DNA from: an uncultured Nitrospiraceae bacterium
Lineage (GTDB): Bacteria > Nitrospirota > Thermodesulfovibrionia > Thermodesulfovibrionales > Dissulfurispiraceae
Assembly (NCBI GenBank): GCA_963705105.1
Contig: CAVPIW010000005.1
Location: 480,001 to 544,000, forward strand
Reading direction: 5' to 3'
Length of the DNA: 64,000 bases
In this document: positions 6,709-60,946 of the stretch, piece after piece
Position numbering within the stretch: the stretch's first letter is position 1
How the letters are laid out: each line of letters begins with the position of its first letter
Notes under the pieces: model-generated
What the model was told of the DNA's origin: nothing
The model's input: the letters and a program-made list of their open reading frames with translations, nothing else
The model's database searches: none
Position numbers and translations under genes: made by a program

Positions 6709-7665
6709 ATGAAACGGCTGGTTCTACTGGGATTCATCGTGGTCATGATGATCGCGTGCTCAAAAACGGGCGACCAAAAAACAGGGACTTATGTTGCAAA
6801 AATAGACAATAAGACGATCACCGCCGAGGACGTCAAGACTGAGATGTCGAACCTCCCCGACGTGGCGAAGGATTTTTTCAAGGGTCCCGAGGGGACGTCG
6901 CGGTTTGTCAATGAGCTCGTCAATAAGGAGCTTCTGTACCTGGAGGCGAAGAAGAAGGGGTTCGACAAGGACAAGAATTTCGAGCGGAAAATGGAGGAGT
7001 TCAAAAAGATCCAGCTCATCAGCCAGTTGCTCGAAAAGGAGATCGGCGCCTCCCTCAAGGTGACCGAGCAGGATGTGCGGGAATACTACGACAAGCACAA
7101 AGACGAGTTCGTCCTGGGAAACCAGGTGCGCATCAGCCACATTCTCGTGAAGACGGAAGACGAAGCGAAGAAAGTCTTCGACCGGCTGAGACAGGGTGAA
7201 GACTTCGCAAAGGTTGCTGCGGCGACCTCGATGGACAAGGTATCCGCCAAGGCAGGCGGTGATATGGGTGTGTTCAAGCGCGGTGAACTGAACCGTGAGC
7301 TCGAAGAGGTCGCCTTCCGGCTGAGAAAGGGCGAGGTGAGCAGGCCCATCCCCCTGAAGGACGGCATCCACATCATCAAGGTGACCGATGTGAAGGGCAC
7401 CGCCATGGAATTCGACAAGGTCAAGAACATGATCAACCAGCGCCTCACGGCGGAAAAGCAGAAACAGACCTTCGAGAAATACCTGGAGGGGCTCAAGAAG
7501 ACCTATAAGATCGACATCAACAAGGAAGCCGTCGCAAAGATGAGCGCCGAACCCCTGAAGCCGGAAGCGGCGAAACCGGAAATGCCGAAACCGGAACCGC
7601 AGAAGCCGGCGGCCCCGAAACCTGAGCCGGCAAAGCCTGAACCGCCGAAACCACAGCCGAAATAA
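6709..7665 (+). CDS. Parvulin-type peptidyl-prolyl isomerase lipoprotein (PrsA-like) with Pro/Lys-rich tail
   Basis: Lipobox MIAC; SHILVKTE, GEDFAKVA, GGDMG, GEVSRPI, GIHIIKV; KPE repeats at the C-terminus. Confidence 0.9.
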   Translation: MKRLVLLGFIVVMMIACSKTGDQKTGTYVAKIDNKTITAEDVKTEMSNLPDVAKDFFKGPEGTSRFVNELVNKELLYLEAKKKGFDKDKNFERKMEEFKKIQLISQLLEKEIGASLKVTEQDVREYYDKHKDEFVLGNQVRISHILVKTEDEAKKVFDRLRQGEDFAKVAAATSMDKVSAKAGGDMGVFKRGELNRELEEVAFRLRKGEVSRPIPLKDGIHIIKVTDVKGTAMEFDKVKNMINQRLTAEKQKQTFEKYLEGLKKTYKIDINKEAVAKMSAEPLKPEAAKPEMPKPEPQKPAAPKPEPAKPEPPKPQPK

Positions 7666-44642: not shown

Positions 44643-45026
44643 AACCGGCCGATTTCAGACACCCTCAAGGGCATACGTAATCTTCACGTTTCAAGCTCCC
44701 GTGGCAATCACCATAACATCGTAGACGGAATTTCAGACGGTCAAGGGAATAATCCTCGCAGAAGTCCGCCCTGGAAGAACATCCACGCAAAGTCCTAGTT
44801 TCAATCAGAAACCCTCAAAGTTCTGGCCACTACAAGAGGTGGTGTAAGGCTTCAGGACAAAGACTTTAAAAATAGACTAAGGTGTAAGAGATAGGACTTG
44901 GAACAGACAAGTCTCATCTTCTTCGTACGACCGCTTCTCTTGACGATGGCTGCTGGTTAAGCTATCCAATGAAATCAAAGATACTCCTATAACATAACTG
45001 GTATGAAACCGTGTATAATTTGCTGA

Positions 45027-48000
45027 ATGGCTATCACAGGTCCACCAGCGGAAGATAGTCCCATCGAGCTGACAACAATGTTGCGTCGGGTAACCACAGA
45101 CCTGCAAACTGAGTTTGTCCATGGTCGGACTCTCTATGGAAAGTACCTTGACAAGTTATCAGAACGGCAATACGATGATGAGGCAGTCATTCATGTCGGC
45201 GATCATGTAACCGTCATTACCGAGGCCCCAGCCAATTTTATCCCACGGAGACATACGAGTTTGGTGTGGTATTGGTCGAACTATCTGTGGCCTTGTTACA
45301 CACTGACTACGTGGTGGAAAACACTCGATGGCCATACAATTCGTCGGATCGCTTTCTTCCCTATAGGTACTCCCGCCGCAGATCTTATGTTCTCCCATCC
45401 TATTCGAGTTGCGCTCATCAACAAAGAGAAATGCCTCGATGCTTTTGATATCGATATCGCAAAGCTCGAAGATAAATACTGGAGTAACATCCCTTCAGAT
45501 CGTGTGACAAAGCATATTCATGAATTGCAGGGAGCAAAGGCATATGTGTACAGATACCTAGTTGCTAGGCTCGCAAAAACGAATCCGGCTGGCGAGTTGG
45601 AGAAAGAGTGGTCTAACCGTTTGAACGGTTGGTTTGAGACATTCTTTAATAACTTAGAAACCCTGGAATTCCAGGCAGAAATAGAGAAAGAAAGTGAGGC
45701 AGTAAGGCAGACTCAGTTTGCCCACTTATTTGATAATGATAATCCCTTAGCAAGTATCTATCATGAATTCGTCAGGCTCTTTTGGAAGGAAATGGAGAGC
45801 CCGGTGGCATTCGTAGGCCTTGTAGATGCGGAGCTTGCGGATGCGCCTTTTTCGATGACGGTAATGCGTTGGCTCTTAAATTGTGCGTGGCTTTCCCCTC
45901 GAGGGAGGTCATGTCAATAGGTGTGTAAAAAGCCATCAGGCGGCGACCCTTTCGGCAGCCCCTTCCTGCCCAACGGCAATGCCGTCAGTGAAGTGTTTCC
46001 CCTCGTAGACATCCCTCAGTAACCAATATCCCTTCAGCCTGCGGTATCTCGTTCAGCGAACCCAGTACTCCAGACGACGCCGCCGCACTTGGACTCAATC
46101 GATTAGCATCCGGCCTAGCGTAAGCGAACTCAACCGTGATCCACCACATTGGACGTCCAGAAGGACCAGTGCTATCGGCAATAATAGAGTATCTTGGGCT
46201 CCAAATCATGCAGCTCCATCGCCTCGGGAAATCCCTCCGAACCGGCGGAGAAAGTGTCCCTGAGCCTCTCATATTCTGCCGCGTCTCTGCATAGTGGTTT
46301 TTGTGAGATACCCGCCTGCCACGGGAACAATTCTCTTCCACCCACCCTTCACGTTGGTTATCTTATGGTTCCAACACCTCTGCACCTTGCCCTCGGGATG
46401 AAGCTCTCCCAACGCTGACCATATCCCCAAATGACCATCGGCAACCGTCAATGTGCCCAGCTTCAGTCCCCGAGCGGTCAGATCCCTCAGGACCCCTGCC
46501 CAGGATTCCTTGCTCTCCCGATACCCGCTCTCGCAGGCCAGCAGGATCTTTTCCCCCGTAACCAACGCCCCGATGATCACCAGCAATGCTGCTTTGTCTT
46601 TCTCCAACCCGGCCTTCACGTATATCCCGTCCGCCCACTGATAGACGACCTCAAGCCCGGAAAGATCCCGAGCAATCCACTCGTCGTATCCGCACTGCCA
46701 TTTGCCCTTCAGCCGCTGGATCGACGAGGACGACAGCGGCGCCCCTTCTCCCAATAACCCCCGAAGCGCTAAATCAAAATCCCCCTGCGCCAGTCCGTGG
46801 AGATACAATTCCGGCAGTAACTGCCCCACTTCTTTTGACCGACGTATGAATAACGGCAGGACCTTGCTCTCAAATCGCTCCTCCGCTCCCCGCACACGGG
46901 GCCGTCGGACCGTGATCGTCCCGTTCATCAGCGTGAACTTCTTCCGCTTCCCGTGTCCGTTCCAATACCCCCGCTTGCCATCCACCTTCTTGATCCTCTC
47001 GGATTTCTTCCTCCCCAAAAATATCTCGACTTCTTCTTCCAGTATGTCCTGAATGTACTCCTGTACTTTCAGCCGAACTATGCTTTCCAATGCCTCGTAT
47101 GTCGCTCTTGACGGCTCAACTGCCTCGGTGATACTCTTGTCCATGGTGGTGTCTCCTTTCTCTGTGTTGATCCCAAGTCACCTGATTAAGGATACACCGC
47201 CTTCTTACTCATTTACACACTTTTTGATCTTACCTTCCTCGAGGAACGGATTGTGGAAAGAGTCTCGTATCCATTGAACTGGACGGCTCCCGTGAGACTC
47301 TCTCCCTCGTGGAATCTCTTCCCGTTGGCTACACCGAATACTTCTGGCATAGGACCTCTCTTGCGCTGCCGATGTATCATGGGCGACTTCTTGGGGCAGG
47401 CAGCTGTCCCGTTGATTTAGATGTTGTAAAGGACCGCGTCCCGCTCTACAAAGACGATGTTGACAAGGGCAAAGAGTTCGTAAAGTCTCTCCTCATGGAG
47501 GCCGTATCCTTCAAGCAATGGACCATCCCTCACGGCGCGTATGTTCAGATGGATATTGGGCCGTTCAAGGCTGTCACACACCTTGAACGCAATAATGACC
47601 GATGCTGTGTTCTTGTCGATGACAGTGGGCATTATTTCAACATCTGGGTAGATCCTTATGCCCAAAACTTCTCCTTTTTACGCAATGACGACTCTAACCC
47701 GGAAGCACTCGCTAGAGTAATCCATGTCATCTTGAAGGAGAAGGGGCTGCTGAAACAGTCGGTGCAAGACATGAGGCAGAATGAGTCGATTGCTACGGTC
47801 ATGGATGCCGAAGACTTGTGTGGACGCGTTAGGGAGCGAATGGCTCTCGAGGATGAACGGTTCACCCTCGGGTTCAAGATTCTTTTAAGCGCGATTATCC
47901 GCGATTTCTGGGTGGTTGAACAGCGAGAGCGTGTCTTTGGGAGGGGGAGACCGATCCGCAAATCCCCGCGACTGAGGGCTGATTGGGGCAAAAAGACGGT

Positions 48001-48753
48001 TATCTATTTGCCACGTATAAGATATGTCGGGGAGGTGACCAGTGGTGAGGAGCAGTTGCATGTAGTCGCTAGGGCTGCGCATTTTGTCACAGGACATCTG
48101 AGACGGGCAGTGCAGGCAAACGAGCAGCAAATAATGCTTGCACGACGCTTCGGCATTATTGTTCCAGAGGGGTTTACCTTCGTCAGGCCGCACCGCAAGG
48201 GGGACAAGGCTCAAGAGCCATGTTATGGTCTTTCATCAACAGTTTCGGGTCAGGCTTTACCGGACCGACAACTTCGTCCCCGTCCGCCTTGCCGTGAGCC
48301 ATACACGAAGTGGCTAATTGCGAACGGCTATGAAGTGGAGCATCTGGCAGGTGGCAGAAATGGGGACGGCGGTGTGGACATCCAGGCCAGCAAAGAAGAT
48401 GAGCACCTCTTGGTTCAGTGCAAATTCTGGCTCACGCAGAAGATTGGCCCAACGTTATCCGGGAGATGTTAGGGACACTAGAGACGTTTCCGGCAGGCTC
48501 AAAGGGAGTGATAATAACTTCTTCTGAATTTACGGAAGGGGCTAAGACTTTGGCGCTGGAACATAGAATACAGTTTATTGAGCCGGAGACAAACCTAAAA
48601 GCCGGTGAACGTCAATCAACCCGTCAGGTTATCCAACTCACAACCTGCTTAACTATGCACCCAAGTCGCTATCTTCCACGTCTGCTCAAAGCACTTGTTC
48701 CCTTGTTCGAATCATTGTATATGTTTGTACGAATATTCCTCAGTCTAAGGTAG
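45027..48753 (+). pseudogene. Large Mrr_cat-type (D..QxK) restriction-endonuclease domain gene split by IS256 and frameshifted near its 3' end
   Basis: Removing 45905-47244 joins ORF 45027 in frame to ORF 47309; C-terminal GDGGVDI..VQCKFW..VIREMLG..IITSSEFT; 3' end uncertain. Confidence 0.75.
45905..47236 (-). mobile_element. IS256-family element; transposase 3' half degenerate
   Basis: Imperfect TIRs gaggtcatgtcaataggtgtgtaaa / aaggtaagatcaaaaagtgtgtaaa; 8-bp TSD cctcgagg (45897-45904, 47237-47244); ORF 46269-47144 with WADGIY, ADGHLG, QRCWNH. Confidence 0.9.
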
Positions 48754-49487
48754 GATGGAAGAAGTGGACACCAAAGTCGGTAAACTAGAGAAAGACGGAG
48801 GTGTCAGGATGAAAGGTATTCCACAGGGACGGTACACGAAGGAATTTCGAGAGGAAGCAGTGAAAATGATTATGGAAGCAGGCATGTCATTGCCGGTGGT
48901 AGCACGTCTGCTCATCGTAGACGCCGTCGAGTTGAGCAACTGGGTCAAGGCATATAAGGCTGGCAATCTCAAGGAAATCGGCAAGAACTATCGGCGGCTC
49001 ACCGAGATAGTGATGGAACTGGCACGAGTCAAGAGAGAGCTTATAGAGACGAGGATGGAGCGAGATTTGTTAAAAAAAGCCGCCGCGTACTTTGCGAGGG
49101 AGACGCAGCCTGGTCCTCGATGGAGGAATACCCAGAATCCTTTCCCCTCCAGGAGGCTTTGAGACTCCAGCGGATACTTGCCGGGTTTTTCGCCCTGCGC
49201 AATCTGCAAGGAAAATCCGCGGCTGGAGGTTGAAATCCAGGCGGCACATGAGCGCACACGGGGGACGTACGGCCGGGACCGCTGATGGAGCATCTTGCCG
49301 TCAACGGGGTGAAAGACGCCTGTGCCTGCATAAGAGACCGCAAGGAACAACTCGTTGAACTCTGCAAACAGAAGAGGCGTTCAAGGTGACAACGGACCGC
49401 GGCATACACTTCCTGGGCGGACAATCTGCTACAGCAGGAAATTCAGGCGACGGCGCCGGGCCGCGTGTGGGTCAGCGACATCACGTA

Positions 49488-50599
49488 TTAACCGTCTCAT
49501 AATAGAATGGAGTCATGCTGCATACTTTGTCGTCTCGTTCTTGAAATATGAACGGACGCGATCTGGTGTTTTTTGAATAAAGCGCAAGTGACTTATGACT
49601 GCCCCACGCATTTGTTCAAGGGTTATCAGAGCTTGTCTGCCGATCGAGTTGTTTTTCAGATCATTCCAGACACGCTCATCAGGATTCAGCTCAGGAGAGT
49701 ATGAGGGGAAGAAGAACAGACGAAATCTCTTCTTGATGGGTTCCGTTTCAATAAATCTGGTGACAAGATTCGCCTTGTGTATCGGATGACCGTCGACAAT
49801 CAGGAAGATCATACGTTCGGTGCCATGAAGCAGCCGCTTGATGAATTCGATAAACACAGAAGCGCCCACGCGACCTTTGACGGTCATAAAACGGAACTCT
49901 CCTTGTGCGCTGACAGCAGACAGAATGTTCAAGCTGAAGCGCGCACCGGTCGTGCTGACCACAGGGGTCTTCCCCTTGGCAGACCATGTCGTTCCCGCAT
50001 GATGATCCGAACGCACTCCCGCCTCATCGCCAAAGAATATCTGTGCCTTCAGACGGCGCGCCATACGCCGAATGCGGGGATACTCCTCTTGAAGCCATCG
50101 TTGCACTTCTTCGGGTTTTTGCTGATATGCACGCCAGACAGGTCGCTGCGGGGTCAAGCCCAACTGCGACAGCAACCGACACACGGACGCCTTGCTCAAC
50201 TTGACCTTAAAGCGCTCATAAATCAGTTGCCCAATCATCTTGGCCGTCCACAGAGCATAGGTAAACTTCAACTGCAAAGGATTCTTCAAGGTCACGGTCT
50301 GATAAATCCAGTGCAGCGCAATCGCATCCAATTTAGGCGGGCGACCGCCTCGCTTGCTGGCATCCAGAGAGCCCCAGCCCCCCTGGCGGTATCGCGCAAG
50401 CCACCCGTACATTGCTGCCCTGCCAATGCCAAGGGCTTTTGCCACAACCTCAGGGTTTTGACCATCTTGCACGCTCTGTACTGCACGCTTCCTCAGTTCC
50501 GTCAGTGTCTTGTGATCAAGTCGCCGAGCATCGTTCGTTTTCATGCATAATAGTATACCAAATTATTCACAAAAGTACATACTATTATGAGACGGTTAA
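49488..50599 (-). mobile_element. IS630-family element, apparently intact
   Basis: Perfect 18-bp TIR ttaaccgtctcataatag; TA duplication (49486-87, 50600-01). Confidence 0.93.
49513..50544 (-). CDS. IS630 transposase
   Basis: [26 protein letters not shown]. Confidence 0.93.
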
Positions 50600-51110
50600 T
50601 ATATCCCGACGGAGGAAGGGTGGCTGTATCTTGCAGCGCATAAGGACCTTTTTACAGGAGAGATTGTGGGGTATGCCATGGGGCAGAGGATAACACAGAA
50701 CCTTGTCAGGGAATCGCTGGTACGAGCGGTGCGGGCGAAACGTCCAGCTGACGGGCTGATACACCACTCTGACCGGGGAAGTGAGTATTGTGCGTATGAC
50801 TTCGGGAAGTTGCTGAACCACTTGAAGATGAATGCTTCAATGAGCGGTACGGGAAACTGCTTTGATAACGCTCCGATGGAGAGCTTCTGGGGGATGTTGA
50901 AGAGTGAGCTGTGCATCACAGGCGCCATCTGAGAGGCATGAGGCGACGGGTGAAATCACCGAGTATATTGAGATAGTTCACAATCGGCAACGGCGGCAGG
51001 CAAGACTTGGGTATCTTTCACCTGCTGCTTTTGAAAGAGCATACCACATGCATGTTCGGGCAGCATGAGAGGTTTGGTGTCCACTATTGACAACCGACCC
51101 CATATATAGC

Positions 51111-51913
51111 TTACGGTCCCGGTTTCCCCGTTAAATTAAGTAACGATTTTACGAAACTCAAAATCGACTCCCATTTATTGGCTATTATTCCTCCAATAGC
51201 GCCAGAAATAATGCCAGCCAGTACGAGCCATATGCCACTATTAACAATCTTGTAGCGCTTCAAGCTTTGTTGTGTTTGATGTAACTCTGCGTACTTTTCA
51301 AGATTATAAACACGGCCAGCGAGCTCGCCAACAGGTCCACCAAGAAATTCTTTAGTATCTTCTGCTGATATAGAGCCTAACTTATGGCGCTCAGAATATA
51401 AAGAATGTTCCAATGATCCTTCAAGGACACGCGGCCTATAGTTAGCGCCATAAATTCGGTCCGGATTAGGCGCAACAGGGGAAAGTAAGAGTTTCGCGAT
51501 TCTATCGCTCTCCCGAATTCTATACGGCGTATTACCTTGATTCAGTTGTGTGATAGTAAGCGGTCCACCGAATCCTGGATCACTGTGGAAATAGGATGAA
51601 AAACCCCGTGAGAAAGCTGAGTATGGCTATTGCCTATGATCCGAACTAGAAAAGGATCTGATAGGTCAATAATCTCTTTTGATACAATTGTTACAACCTC
51701 CCCTGGTTGAACGACGTACCCTTCAGAAGCTATATCAATCGTTATGCTGCGGTTCCGAGATGTCAATCTATTGCCAGCGCGAAGATCATATGCACACCGG
51801 CTGAACTGCTGTGGTGCAAACGTACCATCCAAGAAAAGCTTACCGCTATCAGCAAGAATGATGATATCCCTGTCTATAAGAAAATTCTGAGTCCGTTTCT
51901 CAAAAATTGTCAT
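51111..51913 (-). CDS. Degenerate dCTP deaminase/dUTPase-fold domain fused to a C-terminal TM helix (1-nt frameshift near 51580)
   Basis: AYDLRAG, VQPGEVV; adding one G gives STVDPGFGGPLTITQLNQG..DRIAKL, continuing into ORF 51111-51413 with TM GIWLVLAGIISGAIGGIIA. Confidence 0.7.
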
Positions 51914-52490
51914 CGTCCGCCAGCCCCGAATAGCGTGGTGCTCTAAACTGAAGATTAGCTGGGAGCACATCGGTTTGACCTTCATATTGCTCTTGTTCAA
52001 GACGCAATGAAGCCTCACCTACGACTCTTTCGAAGGTTACCATTCCAATTCCAATGCCAAATGGAAGTAAGATATCGAAAGAACCCAAGTTTTTTATTTC
52101 GACGACGATTGTGCGATGCTCAAGGTGGTTACCGTCAATGATTGAAGAGGTGCAATGCACCATAAGACCGAGCCGTGCGAGAGTGCTGCGACCATCTAAC
52201 TTACACATAAGCGTCGGGCTTATCTTGAATGCCTCAATTGTCGAGCCAAGAACAAAATCGCCAGGTTTGAGCTTAATAGGTCCATGATCGAGCATGTGAG
52301 GAACGTGACGCGGCTCAGAAGGTTCTGAACTGCTCAGGTCGACAATCTGGCCTCCTTCCGGAACAAGCAAGCGACTGCTTAAATGCACACGCAGGCCAAA
52401 TGGCCTGAGTTGTTTTTCATCGAATTTAGGAAGGACAGATATTAGCCCTTGGTCAACGAACTCTTTGATAATATCACCTGGAAGAATCAT
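51900..52490 (-). CDS. dCTP deaminase-like protein (paralogue 3)
   Basis: MILPGD, LKPGDFVLG, LDGRSTLARLGLMVH, IVVEIKN, YEGQ. Confidence 0.88.
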   Translation of the reverse strand: MILPGDIIKEFVDQGLISVLPKFDEKQLRPFGLRVHLSSRLLVPEGGQIVDLSSSEPSEPRHVPHMLDHGPIKLKPGDFVLGSTIEAFKISPTLMCKLDGRSTLARLGLMVHCTSSIIDGNHLEHRTIVVEIKNLGSFDILLPFGIGIGMVTFERVVGEASLRLEQEQYEGQTDVLPANLQFRAPRYSGLADDDNF

Positions 52491-53033
52491 TTAAGCCTCC
52501 TTGCTTTTACTCTCTTTACGAAAGTCACGATGTATCTGAGACCCCCACGGCCCCATCGAGCCCTGATACTTCCCAGAATACAACTCAATATCACCTTCGG
52601 GTCTCCAGAATGTAACTTGCCCTATTCGCATGTCGGGGTAAATCCGCACCGGCTGCACCGCATGAAGCTGGAGAGTCCATTGATTGTGCGATCCAATATC
52701 GATAATATCTGCCGTCACGTGGATAAAAAGCCCAAGCCTTGCAGTGGAAGAACGCCCTCTAATTATCGGAACATAGTGGTCACTGCCCATGATTTCCATA
52801 GTATGCCCCAAATAAATCCAGCCTGGCTCCAGCACAAGGCCACTTTCTGAAAAAGGAACTTCAATGGTAGGATTGTCTTTCTTACAATCAAGAATGTAAT
52901 TCTTATAACGCTTGATAATAGGGCCAAGGCGAAAATCATAGCTGTTTGGGCTGATCTGGTCCGGAGTGAAGGGACGAATGTCTATTCGGCTCGAGCCATG
53001 CTCTTTGGCTATTTGCTGTCCCGTAAGAATCAT
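52491..53033 (-). CDS. dCTP deaminase-like protein (paralogue 2)
   Basis: MILTG, PNSYDFRLG, GRSSTARLGLFIH, WTLQL, RIGQVTF, YSGKYQG. Confidence 0.9.
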   Translation of the reverse strand: MILTGQQIAKEHGSSRIDIRPFTPDQISPNSYDFRLGPIIKRYKNYILDCKKDNPTIEVPFSESGLVLEPGWIYLGHTMEIMGSDHYVPIIRGRSSTARLGLFIHVTADIIDIGSHNQWTLQLHAVQPVRIYPDMRIGQVTFWRPEGDIELYSGKYQGSMGPWGSQIHRDFRKESKSKEA

Positions 53034-53577
53034 TGCTTGTCTCTCTTCTTATGCTGGATAGAGTGGTAGTCAATGACAAAGCGACTAGGCGTTGGCAAGC
53101 ATGTGTCTCGGTAACGACCTGAGTAAGTCTCAGCGTTGCCCTCGGGCCGCCAAAAGCTTACTTGCCCTATTCTCATAAGAGGATAAATGCGGAGTGGTTG
53201 AACAACTTTGAGCTCAAGCGTCCAATTATGAACGAGGCCGAGTTGCCCCAAGTCGCTTGATAGCTGCAAAAAAAGTCCAAGGCGCCCAACGATGAGCGGC
53301 CAATTAAAGAAGCGACAAAAACTGGACTGCCTATTTTCTCATAAGTATGACCCAGATAAAGACGCACCGGATGCAGCAAGATACCATCGGTGGGGATATC
53401 CATTGTCTCCCAGTGGCCCTCAATGCGTGGATCAGACAATTCGCTCCGAGGGATGCCAAGCTGCGGACCTAAGCGGTAATTGTAACTGTTTGGATTTGTC
53501 AGGCTACGATCATATGGATCAATAGTTATATTGCCGGAACTGACCTGTTCTTGAATCTCACGGCTGGTTAAAATCAT
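53030..53577 (-). CDS. dCTP deaminase-like protein (paralogue 1), 1-nt frameshift near 53286
   Basis: MILTS, PNSYNYRLG, GRSSLG; adding one G restores RLGLFLQLSSDLG..WTLEL..RIGQVSF..YSGRY. Confidence 0.82.
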
Positions 53578-54151
53578 CGAATAGCTCGTGCAGGAAAGAT
53601 GTCACTTCAGTCTTAAGGTCAGCTAAAGTGCCATTGTTTGTAATTATATGATCCGGCTTGATTGTATCAAGCCCCTGTTCTGTAGGATGTTGTGAAGACT
53701 CGAGACTTATATCGCCACGTGACCTTCTTCGTTCAATACATGTTTCATGCGATGCCTGTATCTTCACCACGATAAATTTTAACTCTGAAATGAACTCATA
53801 GTCTGGCTGCCGCATGTCATCGCACACTATTAAAGAGTTGGAAGATCGGCCATCCATTTCCGCCAGAGTATCCTGCAATTTCTTGTCAAACCGATCAGTT
53901 AAGACTGACGGGTTAATTTTTCTGAGGTGGGAACCAAGGAAATTCAACAACTCACCATCCTGGACATAGAAACTGGCTAATGGTTTTCCCGCGATCTGGT
54001 ATAATGCGTTTTGGCATTCATACAAAGGATCTGCAAGTCGCAACCTCCGCATTATTATCTGCCTATCAGCGCATAGATCAATTAATAATTTGGTGGTGGT
54101 ACTTTTACCAGCACCAGGACTTCCGTATAAAGCAAGCTTCTTGACCGACAA
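53558..54151 (-). CDS. Deoxynucleoside monophosphate kinase-like P-loop protein
   Basis: GSPGAGKST, LADPL, CDDMR, HPTE, IITNNGT, as in phage-type dNMP kinases; RBS aaggaggg before TTG. Confidence 0.8.
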   Translation of the reverse strand: MSVKKLALYGSPGAGKSTTTKLLIDLCADRQIIMRRLRLADPLYECQNALYQIAGKPLASFYVQDGELLNFLGSHLRKINPSVLTDRFDKKLQDTLAEMDGRSSNSLIVCDDMRQPDYEFISELKFIVVKIQASHETCIERRRSRGDISLESSQHPTEQGLDTIKPDHIITNNGTLADLKTEVTSFLHELFDDFNQP

Positions 54152-54349
54152 TAGACCCTCCTTGACGAAACGGTATGGAGTAAGGGGCTAAGTAGCGTTG
54201 TAATATAACTGCAATTTCCTTTTATTTGCAAGAACTAACAAAGACAAAAGATGAACATACAAATATGCATGAAAAGAAACAACAGGGCTTGGCCGAGGCT
54301 TGCTGAAGCGTTGCAGAAGCTCTGCAAGGCGAAGGACAAGCATGGAGGG

Positions 54350-54771
54350 AGCGAAGGCGTGAGCTTGCTTCCATCAGCTCGCGCCATACCTTCCGTAACG
54401 CGTCGTGCGCTGATCTGCCCGCCGATATCCATAACTGCAGTCATTGAATGCAGGTTCATACATGGGTTCCAGCCAGCTCTTCAGCGCCTGCTGACAGACC
54501 GATCCCATACCGCCGGAATGCCGAGAGGTCGCATCTCCTTTGGTTTACCGCGTTTTGGTATCGGCACTCTCCGTACAGGCATCGGTGCATACCGGTCACT
54601 CCTCAGTTCCCCGTGAAGCTTCTCAAGTTCACTGGCCGAGACCGCATCGATGCCCCCCGCGCCGTGGTTCTCCTTCACCTTCTTCCAGACCAGGTGCAGA
54701 TTACTCGGCTTGTACACCTTGTCAATCAGCAAGTGTACCTTCTTCCGCTTGATCGCGCTTACTTGCTCCAT
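54350..54771 (-). pseudogene. Group II intron reverse transcriptase N-terminal fragment
   Basis: LIDKVY, WKKVKENHGAGGID, PVRRVPIPK, RPLGIP..DR; frameshifted EP.F..CSYGYR; truncated before YADD. Confidence 0.88.
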
Positions 54772-56857
54772 CGTCGCCAGTTTCCTCTGATGCAGGCTCC
54801 AGGTCTTTCTCTCAGGGAACTATCCTTCGCCTACACCCTACTTGACAAGGTTCAACACATCGTTTACTTATTTTAGGTTCAAGAGATCGTTTACTATCGC
54901 TCTTTGACAATGATGTAGCCACAGCCGATTTAATCATGAACATCTGTTTTGCGGAGGTGTTCATGAAGAAGACTCTCCTGAAGCAACGGGTATCGGCAGT
55001 ACAGCGATACCTCAAAGGGGAAAGTCCCAAAGTATCTGCTCTTCATTGAGAAAGACAAAGCCGTGGCTGTACAAATGGATAGCTCGGTATATCCCAGATG
55101 ATCCAACATGGTTTGAAGACCAGTCCCGGCGACCCCTTACAAGCCGATCCCGGACGCCTACGGAAATTGAAAAGATCGTGGAGATGGTTCGGTTAAGCCT
55201 GTACAATAAGGGACTGTTTTGCGGCAAGCAGGCTATCCAATGGGAAATGATTGACATGGAGATTCAACCGCTCCCTTCCCTAAGCACGAGAGGTCGTATC
55301 TTGCGCCGTCTCGAATTGAGTCATCGACGGACCGGGAGATATGAGCCCAAGGGCAAGAAGTATCGGCTGAACTCTCGTCCGCAGTTCCAAATCAGAGACG
55401 CACCTTATGCTGATGCTGATTGGTCCCATGTGTAGTCTCTCCGGCCAACCTCCTTGTAACCCGGAAGCCTTGATCCGCACTAACGGTGTGAGAAGAGTCG
55501 AGACATTCTGGTCGCGGCGCAAAGCGTTGTGGATGCTGTTTACGCAATTTGGCTGCGGATGGGAATCCCGGAGAATCTTCAAGTGGACAACGAATGGGCC
55601 TTCTTTGGAAGTCCGGTGCACCGCGAGGCATGGGTGCCTCATCGCTTGGGGTTCGTTACGCGTCACGACGGTCCAGTCCACGCGCAGCCTGGAGAAACGG
55701 GATCGTCGAGAAGTTCAATGATCATTATGAGCAGAAGTTTCTCGCCAAGGTCATGATTCCCTCAAGGACGCAGCTTCACCAAGAATCGCTTGAATTCGAG
55801 CATAGGCACAACAGCACCTATCGCTATAGCAAGATGAAGAGGAAAACTCCTCTGAAAGCATAGGCTGACACAGAAAGGAAATTAATCTTCCCAAGCAAGA
55901 GCGATACCCCGAGACATCCCTTGGATAAGCCGGAAGAGGGATACTACCACTTCGTGCGATTCATTCGAGGCAACTGCCGGCTAAACATCTTCGGCGAAAT
56001 GTTTCTTACTCCCCCGCAAAGCCAGTACGAATACTCTGTGCTACCTGTCGTAATTGTCACAGATCAAAAGCGCAGCTCTTGCTGGACATGACAGATCGAA
56101 GAAGACAAATATCAGCTGCGATAATTGTTGATACCGGTCACGGCATCGTGAAGCATATCGACTCTAAATGAGTAAACGATGTCGTGACCCTTTCTTGAGT
56201 AAACGATGTCCTGAACTTTATCACCTACTCACTGCTTCCTTTGGATCTTTCAGACTCAGTTGAGTGAATCGCCTTCCCCTGGCACGTCACCGTTTGGATG
56301 ATGGCAAGCTGCCCCTTCCCGGACAGTCCCGACGTTACTGCTGTTCGCCGGTTCAAGTACAATAGGCTCTTCCGATTCCTCGCACCGCTACAGCGCCGAT
56401 TTCGGGGTTGCCTTATAGAACGCCTTACTTGACCACTATGCTTGTCTGATAAGGACGGCTATGCATAGCAACCACCATCCCGGCTATTCATAACCACCGG
56501 CCCTTGCACGGCGCCCTCGTCAAGACGATACGAGGTCTCCGTGGGTCACCTGACTGTATTCCCTATCAGGCCGCCCGCACACACCTTGGTACGACGGTTG
56601 GATTAGAACGCCTTCGCCTCCATAGTGCAGGCTCAACCTCGTCCCGTCTTTGGCCGACCGGTTCATCGCTGGGGCAGCCCCCATCGATTACGGCCTGGTA
56701 GTTCTCCACAAGCCCTTCTGATTCCACCTCGCGGTGGACACCCTGCCCTCCGGGTCTCGCCCAGCCCCCGAGACATTACTCCCGGGTTCGGATATGAGTC
56801 CCCTAATCTGAGACTCAGTGGGACTTGAACCCACCTGACAGCCACGCTGCCACGCAC
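54772..56857 (-). mobile_element. Group II intron 2, 5' ribozyme region leading into the RT fragment; interrupted by IS481
   Basis: Starts GTGCG at 56857 (gtgcgtggcagcgtggctgtcaggtgggttcaagtccc); contiguous with the RT ORF once the IS is removed. Confidence 0.7.
54843..56223 (+). mobile_element. IS481-like element with frameshifted transposase
   Basis: TIR tgacaaggttcaacacatcgtttact / tgataaagttcaggacatcgtttact with internal repeats; 6-bp TSD cctact (54837-42, 56224-29); HTH and rve fragments (LQVDN, WRNGIVEKFN). Confidence 0.85.
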
Positions 56858-57250
56858 ACTATGGAACTGTCCGACTGCCTGCCCCCGTGCATCACCGGAT
56901 TATGGACTCCTCCTTCCCGGTGCGTTCCTCCGTACCCGGAGAAAAGACACAGGCTCTCCCGGTTCTCGCCATGAAATTTCGATACATGCAAGGGATCTCT
57001 GAACGCGCTGGGTCAGACATGTGCTCGCCCTTTCGCTCATGCCCGCATTGCCTTCCGCTTTCGTTGACAGCGTCGGCACCCTGGACTTACGCTTTTCGCG
57101 GCTCAATACCCTGCCAGTGTATTTGGCTTTGTCGGATTGCTTCGTCTATCCCCTTACGAGCACCTAGTCCTGACTCGGGGCCGTTGTGTTTGTCTGCACC
57201 ATAAAGTGAGGCTCTTGTATTCCAACTACAGGCCGATTTATCCGGCGCTC
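56858..57250 (-). mobile_element. Group II intron 1, 5' remnant (domain I region)
   Basis: gagcgccggataaatcgg...ggccccgagtc...tattgagccgcgaaa...gccgacgctgt...gcggaaggcaa...gagaaccgggag...agtcggacagttccatagt, motifs typical of bacterial group II introns. Confidence 0.65.
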
Positions 57251-57402
57251 CAACGATAAGGTAAGGTGATTAGACGGCAATTGACAAAACATCAACGACA
57301 TTTTACGATTTGTCCAGTAAGTGGCGGCGATGGTGGGGCAGGGGACAATGTTACAGATGCCTCGGTAACGGCCTCCTGTGATTGTCCTTCAGTCTGCAAC
57401 CT

Positions 57403-59034
57403 CTACTTCTTAGCACCATACCCAGATAGGCGCTTCCAGTAGGCGGCATCAACTCTCAGGTGCGTGAGCCGCGCCGGGTCTATCCACCTGAGGAATGAGG
57501 ATGCGGTCTTCCAGTTGCCAGCGAAGTTGCGCGTGTGAATGAGTGTGCATTTCTTGCGCGTGCGGGTTAACCCAACGATGAACTTGCAGATTTCGAGATC
57601 CTTGATTGAGGTGGGGTCGTGTGGCAATGCTACGTCATGTAGCCCGGCAATGAACACATGCTGCGCCGAAAAACCCTGGGAACCTTCGAAGGATGTCACC
57701 TTGATTGTCGGCCGAATCTCTGCATCGGCTTCGAGGGCCATCTGCTCAGCTCGGTCGTCCGGTTCACACCCCTCAGCCTGCGATACGACCTCAGCTTTGT
57801 AGTCACCAGGAATGACATCTTTCAAGGGAATGCAATTGTCCGCAGTGGCTCGAAAAGCGTCGCCGAGGAATGCGGGCTTGTCTGTTCCGAGCACGATCTG
57901 CCATGCGAGATTGGATCGAGAGTTTGCCTTGAGAATAGACGAACCTATGTCCCGGGTGCCGAGCCCTCAGAGTCACGCTGGGTCAACTCATGCCCGCACC
58001 CTCGAGGTATTGGACGACTTGATCTCGGTAGGGCTGCGCTACGATGACGAGCGCCGTTGGATAGCCCTTTTCCAGCGATTCCCGAATCTCGTCCTGCGGA
58101 ATCCTGCTGATTGCCTCTGCGATGAGTGCCCCATGTAGTTCGATCACGCCGTTGAACGGAAGTCTCATTCTCTTCAATCAGGAGTACTTCGCGCTCTCGA
58201 CGCCATTCGCTGGCGGGAAGTGCTTGTATGGCTTATCAATTCGCCCAGGGAGCCGTTCAAGCTGCTTCGCCCTGGTAATGATGTCGTTCACCGCATCGAC
58301 GACCACCTTGGGACACGCTTGCAGAAAGGGAGCACCTCAACCTCTAATCCGAGCGCCACGCGGCAATACGACAGCAACTCGCCGATACCAGGAGGATAGA
58401 GCTTCAGAATCTCTTGCCTCGAGGATCACTAGCGAGTGCGTCTATAATCCGCTTCCAGGGCATTGAAGTCTTGGTACTCATCGATGAGAACCAGTTGAAA
58501 CGAGTCAACCGTAGCATACCCAGCTGACAGTCCCCGGTATGCGCGAAAGACGGTATCATCGAAGTCGACGGCATCGTAGTAGACACCTCGGTCAAGATAC
58601 CACTGAGTGTCCTCGTCATGTCGCAGGGCGCGCATCTTGCCGACGAACAGGGGCGCGCCAACGCCCCTGATGAGCTCGAAATCGTCTGCAATCAGACTTG
58701 CGAGTCCGGGGCAACATGTGAACTCTTCGGAGAGCGGCTCCCTGAGTAGCGCGTGCCGATGAAGCAGACCGAGACCATAGGAATGGAGGGTGTAGACCTG
58801 AGCGAAGTCCCCGAGATCGGCTTCAAGGTCGTTCCTGAGATTGTTGATGAAGGTCAAAACAACTCGCTCCTCATGTCCGCCCGGAGCCAATTCTATCATG
58901 CGCTTGAAGAGCGTTGTCTTCCCAGTCCCAGGGCCTGCGATCACAAGCTTTTTGGCGCTCGACGAGGCCAATACACCCTCTATCGCCGCCCGGAGTTCGG
59001 CCTCTTCAGCCGAGTAGTAGTCTTCTTTCGTCAC
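57403..59034 (-). pseudogene. UvrD/Rep-like SF1 helicase (GajB-like size), multiple frameshifts
   Basis: AGPGTGKT, VLTF.N, TLHS, LIDEYQD; C-terminal TSFEGSQG..HVFI and IVGLTRTRK. Confidence 0.8.
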
Positions 59035-59332
59035 TAACCCCTTTCGCTGACGGCGTTCGCTCTAACATTATATCTAATATAGTGACAGCCTTCCTCCACA
59101 TGATAGCCAATAACAGGGAGGGCGTCAAGCTCCTAAAGCAGCGAAACCCTGGATTCTTGGTCCTAAGAAATAGTGTCCCGTATCAATCAGACAACTTCTA
59201 TTTGGTAACGATGGACTTCTTCGGGAATCCGCGCTCTTGCTGAAGTGGCCCCGGACGAGACTTGCAGGTGACATCTTGCCTCCAGGTATTGATGCGTTCA
59301 CATCTGCAAAACAGGTTGTAGCAGGCTACGAC

Positions 59333-60076
59333 CTAAAATATGACCTGGCAGGGAATCCCTTCCTTTGCAAATGCGGTCCGTAATTCCTCTGCCTTCCGCT
59401 GAAAGAATTCGTCTTCCATAGCCCATTGCAGCCCGTATTTCTTATATGCCCAATCTGCGTAATGATAATTCAGCCTGTCGATGAGGACATGGTCGACCTT
59501 GCCCTTCAGCCCCTGTACGAGCCCCTCGGCGCCCGGAAGGACAGGCGCGATCATGGCGAAGGTCCTGATCCCCTCTGAGTGAAGCTTTCCCAGCGAGTCG
59601 ATTCTCTTCATCGACGGCGGCGCCCCCGGCTCGAAGATCTTCCGTATTTTCTCATCGGCGGTCGTTATGGTGAAGCCGACCTCGGCATCGCTTGATCTCT
59701 TGAGAATCTCAATATCCCTGAGAACGAGAGGGGACTTGGTCTGAATGGTGCAGGGCCAGCCGTTCTCCACGAGGATATCAAGACACCTCTTCGTGACGAG
59801 ATACTTCCTTTCCAGGGGTTGATAGGGATCGCAGACGCCGCTTATCCATACCCTCCCGACCCTTTTCCTTCTCACCTCGGCAGCCAGAAGCTCAGGGGCG
59901 TTTATCTTGACATCGACAAACTCTCCCCATGGTTCCCTGTGGCCGGTAAAACGCTTCATAAACTTGGCATAGCAGTACACGCACGCATGCCGGCAGCCCA
60001 CATAAGGATTCAAGGCGTACTCATAAACCTGCGATTTGGACAGTATGCTCTTTGCTTGTATCTCCCTGATCTTCAT
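59333..60076 (-). CDS. Radical SAM protein (SPL/Rv2578c-like family)
   Basis: NPYVGCRHACVYCYA, DPYQPLE, TKS, FEPGAP. Confidence 0.9.
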   Translation of the reverse strand: MKIREIQAKSILSKSQVYEYALNPYVGCRHACVYCYAKFMKRFTGHREPWGEFVDVKINAPELLAAEVRRKRVGRVWISGVCDPYQPLERKYLVTKRCLDILVENGWPCTIQTKSPLVLRDIEILKRSSDAEVGFTITTADEKIRKIFEPGAPPSMKRIDSLGKLHSEGIRTFAMIAPVLPGAEGLVQGLKGKVDHVLIDRLNYHYADWAYKKYGLQWAMEDEFFQRKAEELRTAFAKEGIPCQVIF

Positions 60077-60287: not shown

Positions 60288-60575
60288 TTATTCTACCTCG
60301 TGAGGCCATTTCCTCGAGGCATGAAGCACGCGCAGTATCTCGACAGTGTCGTTCTTCACGCGGTAGGGGATAATATAAGGCAAGGCGGATAAAACAAGCT
60401 CCCGTGTTCCCTCTATCCTGCCGGGCCGCCCGGAGTCCGGATATTCTGCAAGGACATCAACGCTTTGCCTGATAAGAACGGCTACCTTGGCTGCAGCCTG
60501 CGGCTTGTCCGAGGCGATATATTTCCTGATCTGAATGAGATCGGTGACGGCGTCGTCGAGCCAGCTTATCCGCAC
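60288..60575 (-). CDS. Type II TA toxin, RelE/ParE family
   Basis: W...A..DL..I..YI..D.P.AA, GRPGRIEGTREL, YIIPYRV, ILRVLH. Confidence 0.92.
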   Translation of the reverse strand: MRISWLDDAVTDLIQIRKYIASDKPQAAAKVAVLIRQSVDVLAEYPDSGRPGRIEGTRELVLSALPYIIPYRVKNDTVEILRVLHASRKWPHEVE

Positions 60576-60835
60576 TGCGGGGGCTCCTTCTCATTTTCCG
60601 CCCCCCATGTATCGAGCCATGCCGAAACATCCTCATGGGAGGCGAACCTCGCGCCGGGACTGTCAGCCCTGTTGACGGCTTTCCTTATGGTCCTCACCTG
60701 CCATTCGTTCTGTTCGAGGTAATCCTGAATGGCAAGTGTGACAATGTATGTTTTTGAACGTGAAACAGCCTCCGCCAGGCGTTCGAGTCTCTCCTTAGTC
60801 TCCTCATCGATGCGTATTGTTAATGTCGTGCTCAT
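60566..60835 (-). CDS. Type II TA antitoxin, CopG/RHH family
   Basis: MSTTLTIRID..KERLERLA..RSK; overlaps the toxin start. Confidence 0.9.
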   Translation of the reverse strand: MSTTLTIRIDEETKERLERLAEAVSRSKTYIVTLAIQDYLEQNEWQVRTIRKAVNRADSPGARFASHEDVSAWLDTWGAENEKEPPQCG

Positions 60836-60946
60836 TGCGCACACCTCCGTAACACAATATAACACAATGCAAAACAAAAGCGGAATTGAGGATGCAAGTC
60901 TCAGCCACTTGCTATTGAAATATTACCGTTTTCTCCCGTTATGCAA

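Follow-up and report, generated by a model that had tools for sequence, protein, structure and literature searches.

A gene that ends a compact five-gene cassette in the 64,000-nucleotide stretch of Nitrospiraceae DNA analysed here (the window) belongs to a family of proteins in which a Dcd-fold head, with what appears to be a re-tailored rather than an eroded active site, is joined in a single chain to a predicted coiled coil and a predicted C-terminal transmembrane (TM) helix. This protein, Dcd4-TM, may well be a membrane effector that is gated by a nucleotide and works in anti-phage defence along the lines of Kongming. We observed its architecture, its residues, the conservation of its operon, a predicted trimer and a set of mobile, partly defensive contexts, from which we infer that it may bind a ligand of a particular identity, be toxic to the membrane and act against phage.

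A single missing base divides one gene into two reading frames

The gene lies on the minus strand in two pieces. The N-terminal piece (51581..51913) corresponds to residues 1-111 of a 267-aa homologue and covers the degenerate Dcd domain, His97 and His106 included, and the C-terminal piece (51111..51581) corresponds to residues 112-267, with the motif-3 Asp, the lid Tyr155, the linker, the coiled coil and the TM helix. The reading frame switches at 51581, where the N-terminal part ends in HPISTV and the other frame runs from DPGF to DRIAKL and a stop at 51111. Using the C-terminal frame as query, five intact proteins of 251-290 aa were retrieved. An intact 267-aa protein, P0001, is equivalent to both halves joined, with seven residues differing, and an intact copy from a Nitrospirae MAG (L024) aligned with the window DNA over 2525 bp at 81% identity, with exactly one base absent at 51581. 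The original prediction, that a hidden frameshift separates two open reading frames of one gene, is therefore correct, and P0001 together with the L024 alignment indicates that the gene normally encodes the Dcd-TM fusion in one piece. The region assigned to the first frame was too long, since the N-terminal part begins at the ATG at 51913 and not at the GTG at 52018. Restoring the frame does give one protein of about 267 aa, but it would not be a normal one: six of the seven window-specific residues are found in none of 49 homologues, and one of them replaces an invariant Leu. Programmed frameshifting at 51581 was set aside, as the relatives are intact and a slippery run is absent at the site.

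A Dcd head with a predicted coiled-coil stalk and transmembrane helix

An AF2 model built from 48 sequences (pLDDT 89.7) consists of a Dcd head, a linker, a long helix (residues 193-246) and a short terminal helix; an earlier model from five sequences was poor (pLDDT 49.7) and was discarded. Along the long helix, a three-stranded coiled-coil stalk is predicted at residues ~193-226 (51237..51338, minus strand), followed by a predicted single TM helix at residues 227-245 (51180..51236, minus strand) with a hydropathy of 2.13 and basic residues before it, in agreement with the helical linker and C-terminal TM helix first proposed. The top Foldseek matches of the model were all Dcd or dUTPase structures, and matches in a viral fold library were to dUTPase/Dcd heads only. 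An atlas search with the stalk and TM helix alone returned a single match at 0.78, a lead at most.

A trimer had also been proposed, and a Dcd4 homotrimer was indeed predicted, with a score of 0.83 versus 0.00 for the best of three controls; among solved pairs the mark used for this score is attained in 20 of 30 cases, among single chains in one of 23. The trimer runs agreed in at least 86% of contacts at a pLDDT of at least 74. The prediction itself may stem from the resemblance of Dcd4 to Dcd trimers already solved. In the model, the subunits touch through the head, through heptad positions 195-212 of the stalk (195, 198, 202, 205, 209 and 212) and along the TM helix (230, 234, 238 and 242), and segments 94-113 and 120-130 fall within the predicted subunit interface.

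We then asked how general this architecture is. Among 49 close homologues, a TM helix at a hydropathy of at least 1.5 was present in 39 and borderline in three, and was missing from six full-length proteins and one fragment. In P0001 and some 40 other relatives, one chain contains the Dcd domain, the coiled coil and the TM helix, and this single-chain Dcd-TM architecture is the norm of the close family. Intact one-gene homologues thus bear out the fusion, but homologues without the TM helix, which the original prediction had counted against itself, also occur: six of the 49, with lengths of 204-228 aa, stop where the coiled coil ends. L015 shows that this short form is real, since there a true stop codon closes the gene within an intact cassette. 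The TM helix is Gly-rich locally but not family-wide, with GxxxG in eight of 42 TM-bearing homologues. Lys and Arg are richer before than after the TM helix in all 42, and an N-terminal hydrophobic stretch occurs in only one of the 49 homologues; by predicted topology, these features place the Dcd head on the cytoplasmic side.

The deaminase residues are replaced by a near-invariant set

Residues were compared with those of E. coli Dcd, in which Ser111, Arg115 and Glu138 form what we take to be the catalytic set of dCTP deaminase; E138 mutants are named in PDB titles among the structure matches. The equivalents in close Dcd4 homologues are His, Ala/Ser/Gly and Thr, respectively, each in 48 of 49 sequences, and the phosphate-binding RSS of motif 2 is replaced by Lys/Ser-His-Ser/Thr, so the loss of the RSS, Arg115 and Glu138 equivalents had been rightly recognized. 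The TIGR02274 (dCTP deaminase) model scored 55 bits, below its cut-off of 92.8. The residues of the pocket hardly vary, namely His97 (48 of 49), His106 (49), Asp112 (49), Asn125 (47) and Tyr155 (49); in E. coli numbering, the motif-3 Asp128 is held in 49/49, Asn141 in 47/49 and the lid Tyr in 49/49. The family has 11 invariant columns across 48 sequences at 29-83% identity, and dN/dS between Dcd4 and L024 is about 0.2, that is, purifying selection. Because the site is so strongly conserved, 'degenerate' is best taken to mean re-tailored: judged by its residues, Dcd4 has no deaminase site, and its pocket is adapted rather than eroded. In common with E. coli Dcd (PDB 1xs1; TIGR02274; Pfam PF22769), Dcd4 has the fold (Foldseek E 1e-10), the predicted trimer, YDLR, the motif-3 Asp, Asn141 and the lid Tyr; it differs in the replacement of Ser111, Arg115, His121 and Glu138 and in the added coiled coil and TM helix.

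The best PDB sequence matches of Dcd4 are archaeal Dcd-type dUTPases from Pyrococcus (P45; 9ln0/9ln3) and Thermococcus pacificus (8y1w), which are active enzymes. Like Dcd4 they have no Glu138 and possess the VDPG Asp; unlike Dcd4 they have RSS, are soluble, lack His97 and His106 and are not part of a multi-paralogue cassette. Since the motif-3 Asp is invariant in Dcd4 and these dUTPases also do without Glu138, a hydrolase has to be considered. The main alternative, which we regard as rather unlikely, has Dcd4-TM working as an enzyme: a nucleotide pyrophosphatase with changed, archaeal-dUTPase-like specificity, held at the membrane by a TM helix that only localises it, would remove or finish a modified nucleotide coming from the kinase and Dcd1-3, in pool manipulation during conflict or in self-protection. 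Asp112 and Tyr155 fit such an enzyme, the motif-3 Asp being the catalytic residue of dUTPases (PMC4827122), as does the dispensability of the TM helix in one subclade, and the two invariant His could be catalytic. On the other hand, the RSS of the archaeal enzymes is gone from Dcd4. The motif-3 Asp also binds the sugar 3'-OH and would be expected in a mere binder too. Moreover, similar domains fused to HTH regulators argue for sensing, and a cytoplasmic pyrophosphatase has no clear need for a stalk and TM helix, yet a C-terminal TM helix is found in 121 of 155 proteins of the wider family (the best 150 of 1654 representatives plus five seeds). Were the pyrophosphatase real, it would be an undescribed membrane-tethered nucleotide enzyme in an unusual four-paralogue Dcd pathway.

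Dcd4-TM is the last gene of a conserved cassette

The original prediction took the gene alone. Dcd4-TM in fact closes a dense run of five genes on the minus strand, in the order kinase, Dcd1, Dcd2, Dcd3, Dcd4-TM. The first (53558..54151) encodes a P-loop nucleotide kinase of 197 aa that is dNMP-kinase-like (Pfam DNMK, E 2e-6, 28 bits against a cut-off of 27.1). The Dcd-fold paralogue Dcd1 (53030..53577) is frameshifted, with one base absent at 53289, and its L024 orthologue is intact at 179 aa; it has RS, Arg115 and Glu138, with Asp128 changed to Asn/Gln. Dcd2 (52491..53033; 180 aa, intact; Pfam DCD E 6e-41; TIGR02274 just above cut-off) has Asp128, with Glu138 changed to Gln. Dcd3 (51900..52490; 196 aa, intact; Pfam DCD E 1e-21) has the canonical residues RS, Arg115, His121, Asp128 and Glu138 and is predicted to be an active deaminase. 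Each Dcd paralogue thus carries a different catalytic residue set. A separate housekeeping dcd lies on another contig of the host genome. PADLOC-DB 2.0.0 gave zero matches for the kinase, the Dcd1 N-terminal piece, Dcd2, Dcd3, P0001 and ten distant Dcd representatives, and a promoter and terminator scan was near chance.

Scans with close-clade alignments picked out four metagenome loci from 11 pattern matches and two genome loci from six; as they relied on one short pattern, these numbers are too low. Dcd4 followed Dcd2-Dcd3 as the last gene in all six related loci, and Dcd1 and a kinase preceded Dcd2 in all four with a long enough contig (L014, L017, L024 and L025); the independent cases are fewer, since L016 and L017 apparently represent a single organism and L024 is closely related to the window. 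The kinase is exchangeable, being of the P-loop type in the window and L024 and ThiL-like in L014, L017 and L025. L025 also has a housekeeping thiL, which makes its ThiL-like cassette kinase a second paralogue; this kinase shares 48% identity with that of L014. The L024 kinase (6897-7244), although it belongs to the closest intact Dcd1-4 run, is truncated to 116 aa, so that in Nitrospirota two copies of the cassette carry damage, each in other genes.

The surroundings of the cassette are mobile or defensive in most of the related loci: a relaxase, a coupling protein and two SpbK-like TIR genes in L014, an integrase and an LmuA/Avs1a-like hydrolase in L015, a RES gene and IS21 in L024, and an integron-type integrase in L025. 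An attC site 3' of the L025 cassette, suggested by this integrase, was rejected, as a pattern scan found none and candidate folds were no better than shuffles (z -0.46). The distribution of Dcd4 is patchy: it was not found in the 60 relatives searched, four of which yielded weak partial Dcd matches. No relative was found in viral contigs with P0001 or A3, phage records gave ordinary Dcd/dUTPase matches only (0/47 cover 80%), and plasmids gave no full-length match to Dcd4 or Dcd3.

On plasmids, the Dcd1/Dcd2 pair occurs without Dcd3 and Dcd4 in biosynthetic-type clusters (six loci examined of 18 matches; in L018 the second paralogue is missing from an incomplete gene table). There, in Streptomyces, Nocardiopsis, Nonomuraea and Rhizobium, homologues lie beside genes for kinases, methyltransferases, glycosyltransferases, HAD, NUDIX and HIT proteins. 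These clusters speak for the view that the whole cassette serves the synthesis of a modified nucleoside or nucleotide metabolite, as a small unit in which a non-catalytic Dcd4 joins mixed Dcd trimers and anchors them at the membrane, as do the HAD or HIT genes that flank L014, L015 and L016 and the presence of four paralogues of a trimeric fold, which invites heteromers. We consider this improbable: the five-gene cassette is devoid of tailoring and export genes, distant Dcd-TM proteins occur without any other Dcd and even solo, and the trimer predicted is a homotrimer with its own coiled coil (possibly via likeness to solved Dcd trimers). A 288-aa protein, P0019, combines a Dcd2-type N-terminus with a Dcd4-TM C-terminus and is either a natural Dcd3 deletion or a chimeric assembly.

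The local copy is probably decaying

The cassette block has a low GC content, 0.43-0.49 versus 0.57, and its island is the most gene-poor 15 kb of the genome, with a long-ORF cover of 0.30, below all 270 genome windows (median 0.77). Outgroup polarisation of Dcd2-4 placed eight changes on the window lineage versus one on its sister (p 0.04), and at three further kinase differences two other strains agree against the window. Over the whole gene, the surplus of substitutions in Dcd4 compared with the other genes (7/267 vs 5/573) was not significant (p 0.06), and a small p for Dcd4 residues 37-123 comes from a post hoc choice. An indel problem across the genome was discounted, with completeness at 99.36% and 79 open frames of 1000 or more codons. 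The two frameshifts, the lowest ORF cover in the genome and the unusual substitutions together make decay likelier than error. Thus, the local cassette is probably a decaying pseudo-operon, and an assembly error behind the local lesions is the less probable account.

A broken copy in the most gene-poor part of the genome is also what would be expected if a mobile element carried the cassette as a duplicate of housekeeping pyrimidine metabolism and Dcd4-TM were a drifting relic. The conservation of the family already largely refutes this very improbable reading: Dcd4 is under purifying selection relative to L024 and keeps its invariant columns, gene order is preserved in distant organisms, and the housekeeping dcd and thiL are located elsewhere.

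The island (44700-59700) is an IS graveyard with IS256-, IS3- and IS630-type elements. An IS3-type remnant (48745..51102), split by an IS630 transposase (49513-50544), abuts the Dcd4 stop and belongs to the flank, outside the cassette. The island also contains a broken Mrr-type nuclease (47309-48753), a broken UvrD/GajB-like helicase (57403-59034) and, at 54481-54771, what by eye resembles a group II intron RT remnant without a Pfam match. An orphan ORF of 297 aa at the left edge (45027-45920) has no Pfam, PADLOC or NCBIfam match, and a ParE toxin with an RHH antitoxin (60288-60877) lies just beyond the island.

Comparison with known systems and a proposed mechanism

The original prediction drew its analogy from the sensor-TM effectors of CBASS and Pycsar. 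Cam1, PycTM and Cap14/Cap15 resemble the proposed Dcd4 effector in being oligomeric and in having a nucleotide-binding domain fused to TM helices, and Thoeris macro-TM is likewise such a fusion. Dcd4 differs from these effectors in that its head has the dUTPase fold and is predicted to form a trimer with a coiled-coil stalk, and the cassette is without cyclase, CD-NTase, TIR or Cas10; a CD-NTase or pyrimidine cyclase was found neither in the window cassette nor in the six related loci. Cam1, a CARF-TM fusion, depolarises membranes (PMC10808066). Because the cyclase is absent, Kongming is the better analogy. In Kongming (10.1101/2024.12.20.629578), dITP is made by a deaminase together with a dNMP kinase and is sensed by KomB, whose catalytic Asp is changed to His and whose binding residues are retained. 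Kongming (the deaminase KomA, the degenerate HAM1 sensor KomB and the SIR2 protein KomC) would share with the cassette the logic of a base-modified dNTP that a deaminase and dNMP kinase activity produce and a degenerate nucleotide-sanitising enzyme reads, and would differ in fold (HAM1 and ADA as opposed to Dcd), in borrowing its kinase from the phage instead of having its own, and in using an NADase effector instead of a fused TM helix. No HAM1-fold sensor, adenosine deaminase or SIR2 was found among the cassette genes, and the cassette belongs to none of Kongming, CBASS and Pycsar. The AvcD (DcdV) anti-phage dCTP deaminases also bring kinase and dCTP-deaminating activity together in defence; in AvcD systems, a zinc CDA-fold deaminase is fused to the kinase, and PADLOC showed no AvcD/DcdV match to the cassette. 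Keyword searches of the openly accessible literature, bioRxiv supplements apart, turned up no account of either Dcd-TM or the cassette. The 'DCD domain' of Bell et al. 2020 is reportedly an unrelated PUA-like domain. A predicted, unvalidated system singled out by DefensePredictor (PMC13092281) has a dUTPase domain and may overlap with Dcd-TM.

The proposal of a sensor coupled to a membrane effector is partly supported, namely by the Dcd-TM chain, the lost deaminase residues, the predicted trimer and cytoplasmic head, the reuse of the domain and the CBASS, Gabija and restriction-modification neighbours of distant relatives (see below). It is weakened by the TM-less 6/49, the invariant Asp, the lack of a PADLOC model and the Dcd1/Dcd2 pair of biosynthetic-type clusters; in addition, one helix per trimer subunit is a small pore. 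In the mechanism we favour, a homotrimeric dUTPase/Dcd-fold head in the cytoplasm would bind a nucleotide, probably a non-canonical one, in three inter-subunit pockets, and the coiled-coil stalk would link it to a three-helix membrane bundle. A change in ligand state might then cause the bundle to impair the membrane or halt growth. The kinase with Dcd1, Dcd2 and Dcd3 would make, convert or remove the nucleotide, most likely a modified pyrimidine. This nucleotide could be an activating signal upon phage infection, as in the logic of Kongming, or a constitutive ligand that keeps the effector inhibited until it is lost, as in that of Panoptes and Hailong.

Distant Dcd-TM proteins have varied partners

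A profile search retrieved 1654 representatives (E 0.001 or lower), among which ordinary Dcds are numerous. Among the 121 TM-bearing proteins mentioned above, Arg115 was present in six and Asp128 in 117, and Glu138 was outside the six commonest residues. Similar degenerate Dcd domains are fused to HTH_3, AAA and NUDIX domains or occur as tandem copies, as would be expected of a reusable sensor. The HTH_3 fusions (L080, 3603-4487; P0095, P0096 and P0167) have no TM helix and may be nucleotide-responsive regulators; in L080, a methyltransferase gene adjoins.

Ten distant TM-bearing loci were collected, three from five plasmid matches, four from 300 genomes of the host phylum (one with a borderline TM helix) and three from 400 genomes of one other phylum; the plasmid search returned nothing for three of four distant representatives. 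Six of the ten had nucleotide-type enzymes as neighbours, three were solo and one had an uncharacterised partner. A unit of Dcd-2TM, MazG-like protein and FMN oxidoreductase is conserved in L026, L027 and L028, with or without the MazG-annotated gene, a label that comes from RefSeq and has no Pfam match; the hosts are culturable. In L061 (6029-8542), Dcd-TM is accompanied by a P-loop kinase and a gene of the U32 family, whose proteins hydroxylate RNA pyrimidines; the element also bears a relaxase. L079 (1247-5346) combines an RNase H-like exonuclease, a PurA-like (adenylosuccinate-synthetase-like) protein, Dcd-2TM and a deoxynucleoside kinase, which hints that some Dcd-TM proteins may read a modified purine. 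In L081, the neighbour is a radical SAM gene.

Several of these units adjoin defence genes. The Dcd-2TM unit lies directly after a CBASS that has its own patatin effector in S. meliloti (L027, 7998-9857), directly after Gabija in R. beringeri (L028, 7998-10088) and beside PDC-S60 and PDC-M37 in Priestia (L026, 7992-10249), and L061 also adjoins MTase/SNF2/Vsr genes. No defence neighbour was seen among the selected neighbours scanned in L016, L017, L059, L060, L062 and L078. Drawn from selected neighbours, these observations are suggestive rather than evidence of enrichment.

Taken further, and tentatively, Dcd-TM trimers could be the common receptor-effector of a large undescribed immune class that signals via chemically modified nucleotides. 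The signal-making module would be swapped between clades (kinase and three Dcd paralogues; MazG and FMN oxidoreductase; kinase and U32 hydroxylase-like protein; PurA-like protein and dNK; radical SAM), and solo versions would read phage-made nucleotides directly. In the window cassette, the Dcd1/Dcd2 pair known from nucleoside biosynthetic clusters would have been co-opted for the synthesis of a new pyrimidine second messenger. If so, the nucleotide-receptor folds SAVED, CARF, macro, PNP and HAM1 would be joined by the dUTPase/Dcd fold, and a different new nucleotide signal would be predicted from each set of partner enzymes, such as that of the ~3 kb cassette.

In one genome, an extra Dcd follows a protein of 457-491 aa without a Pfam or PADLOC match at two loci (L068, 7132-9206; L069, 6980-9084).
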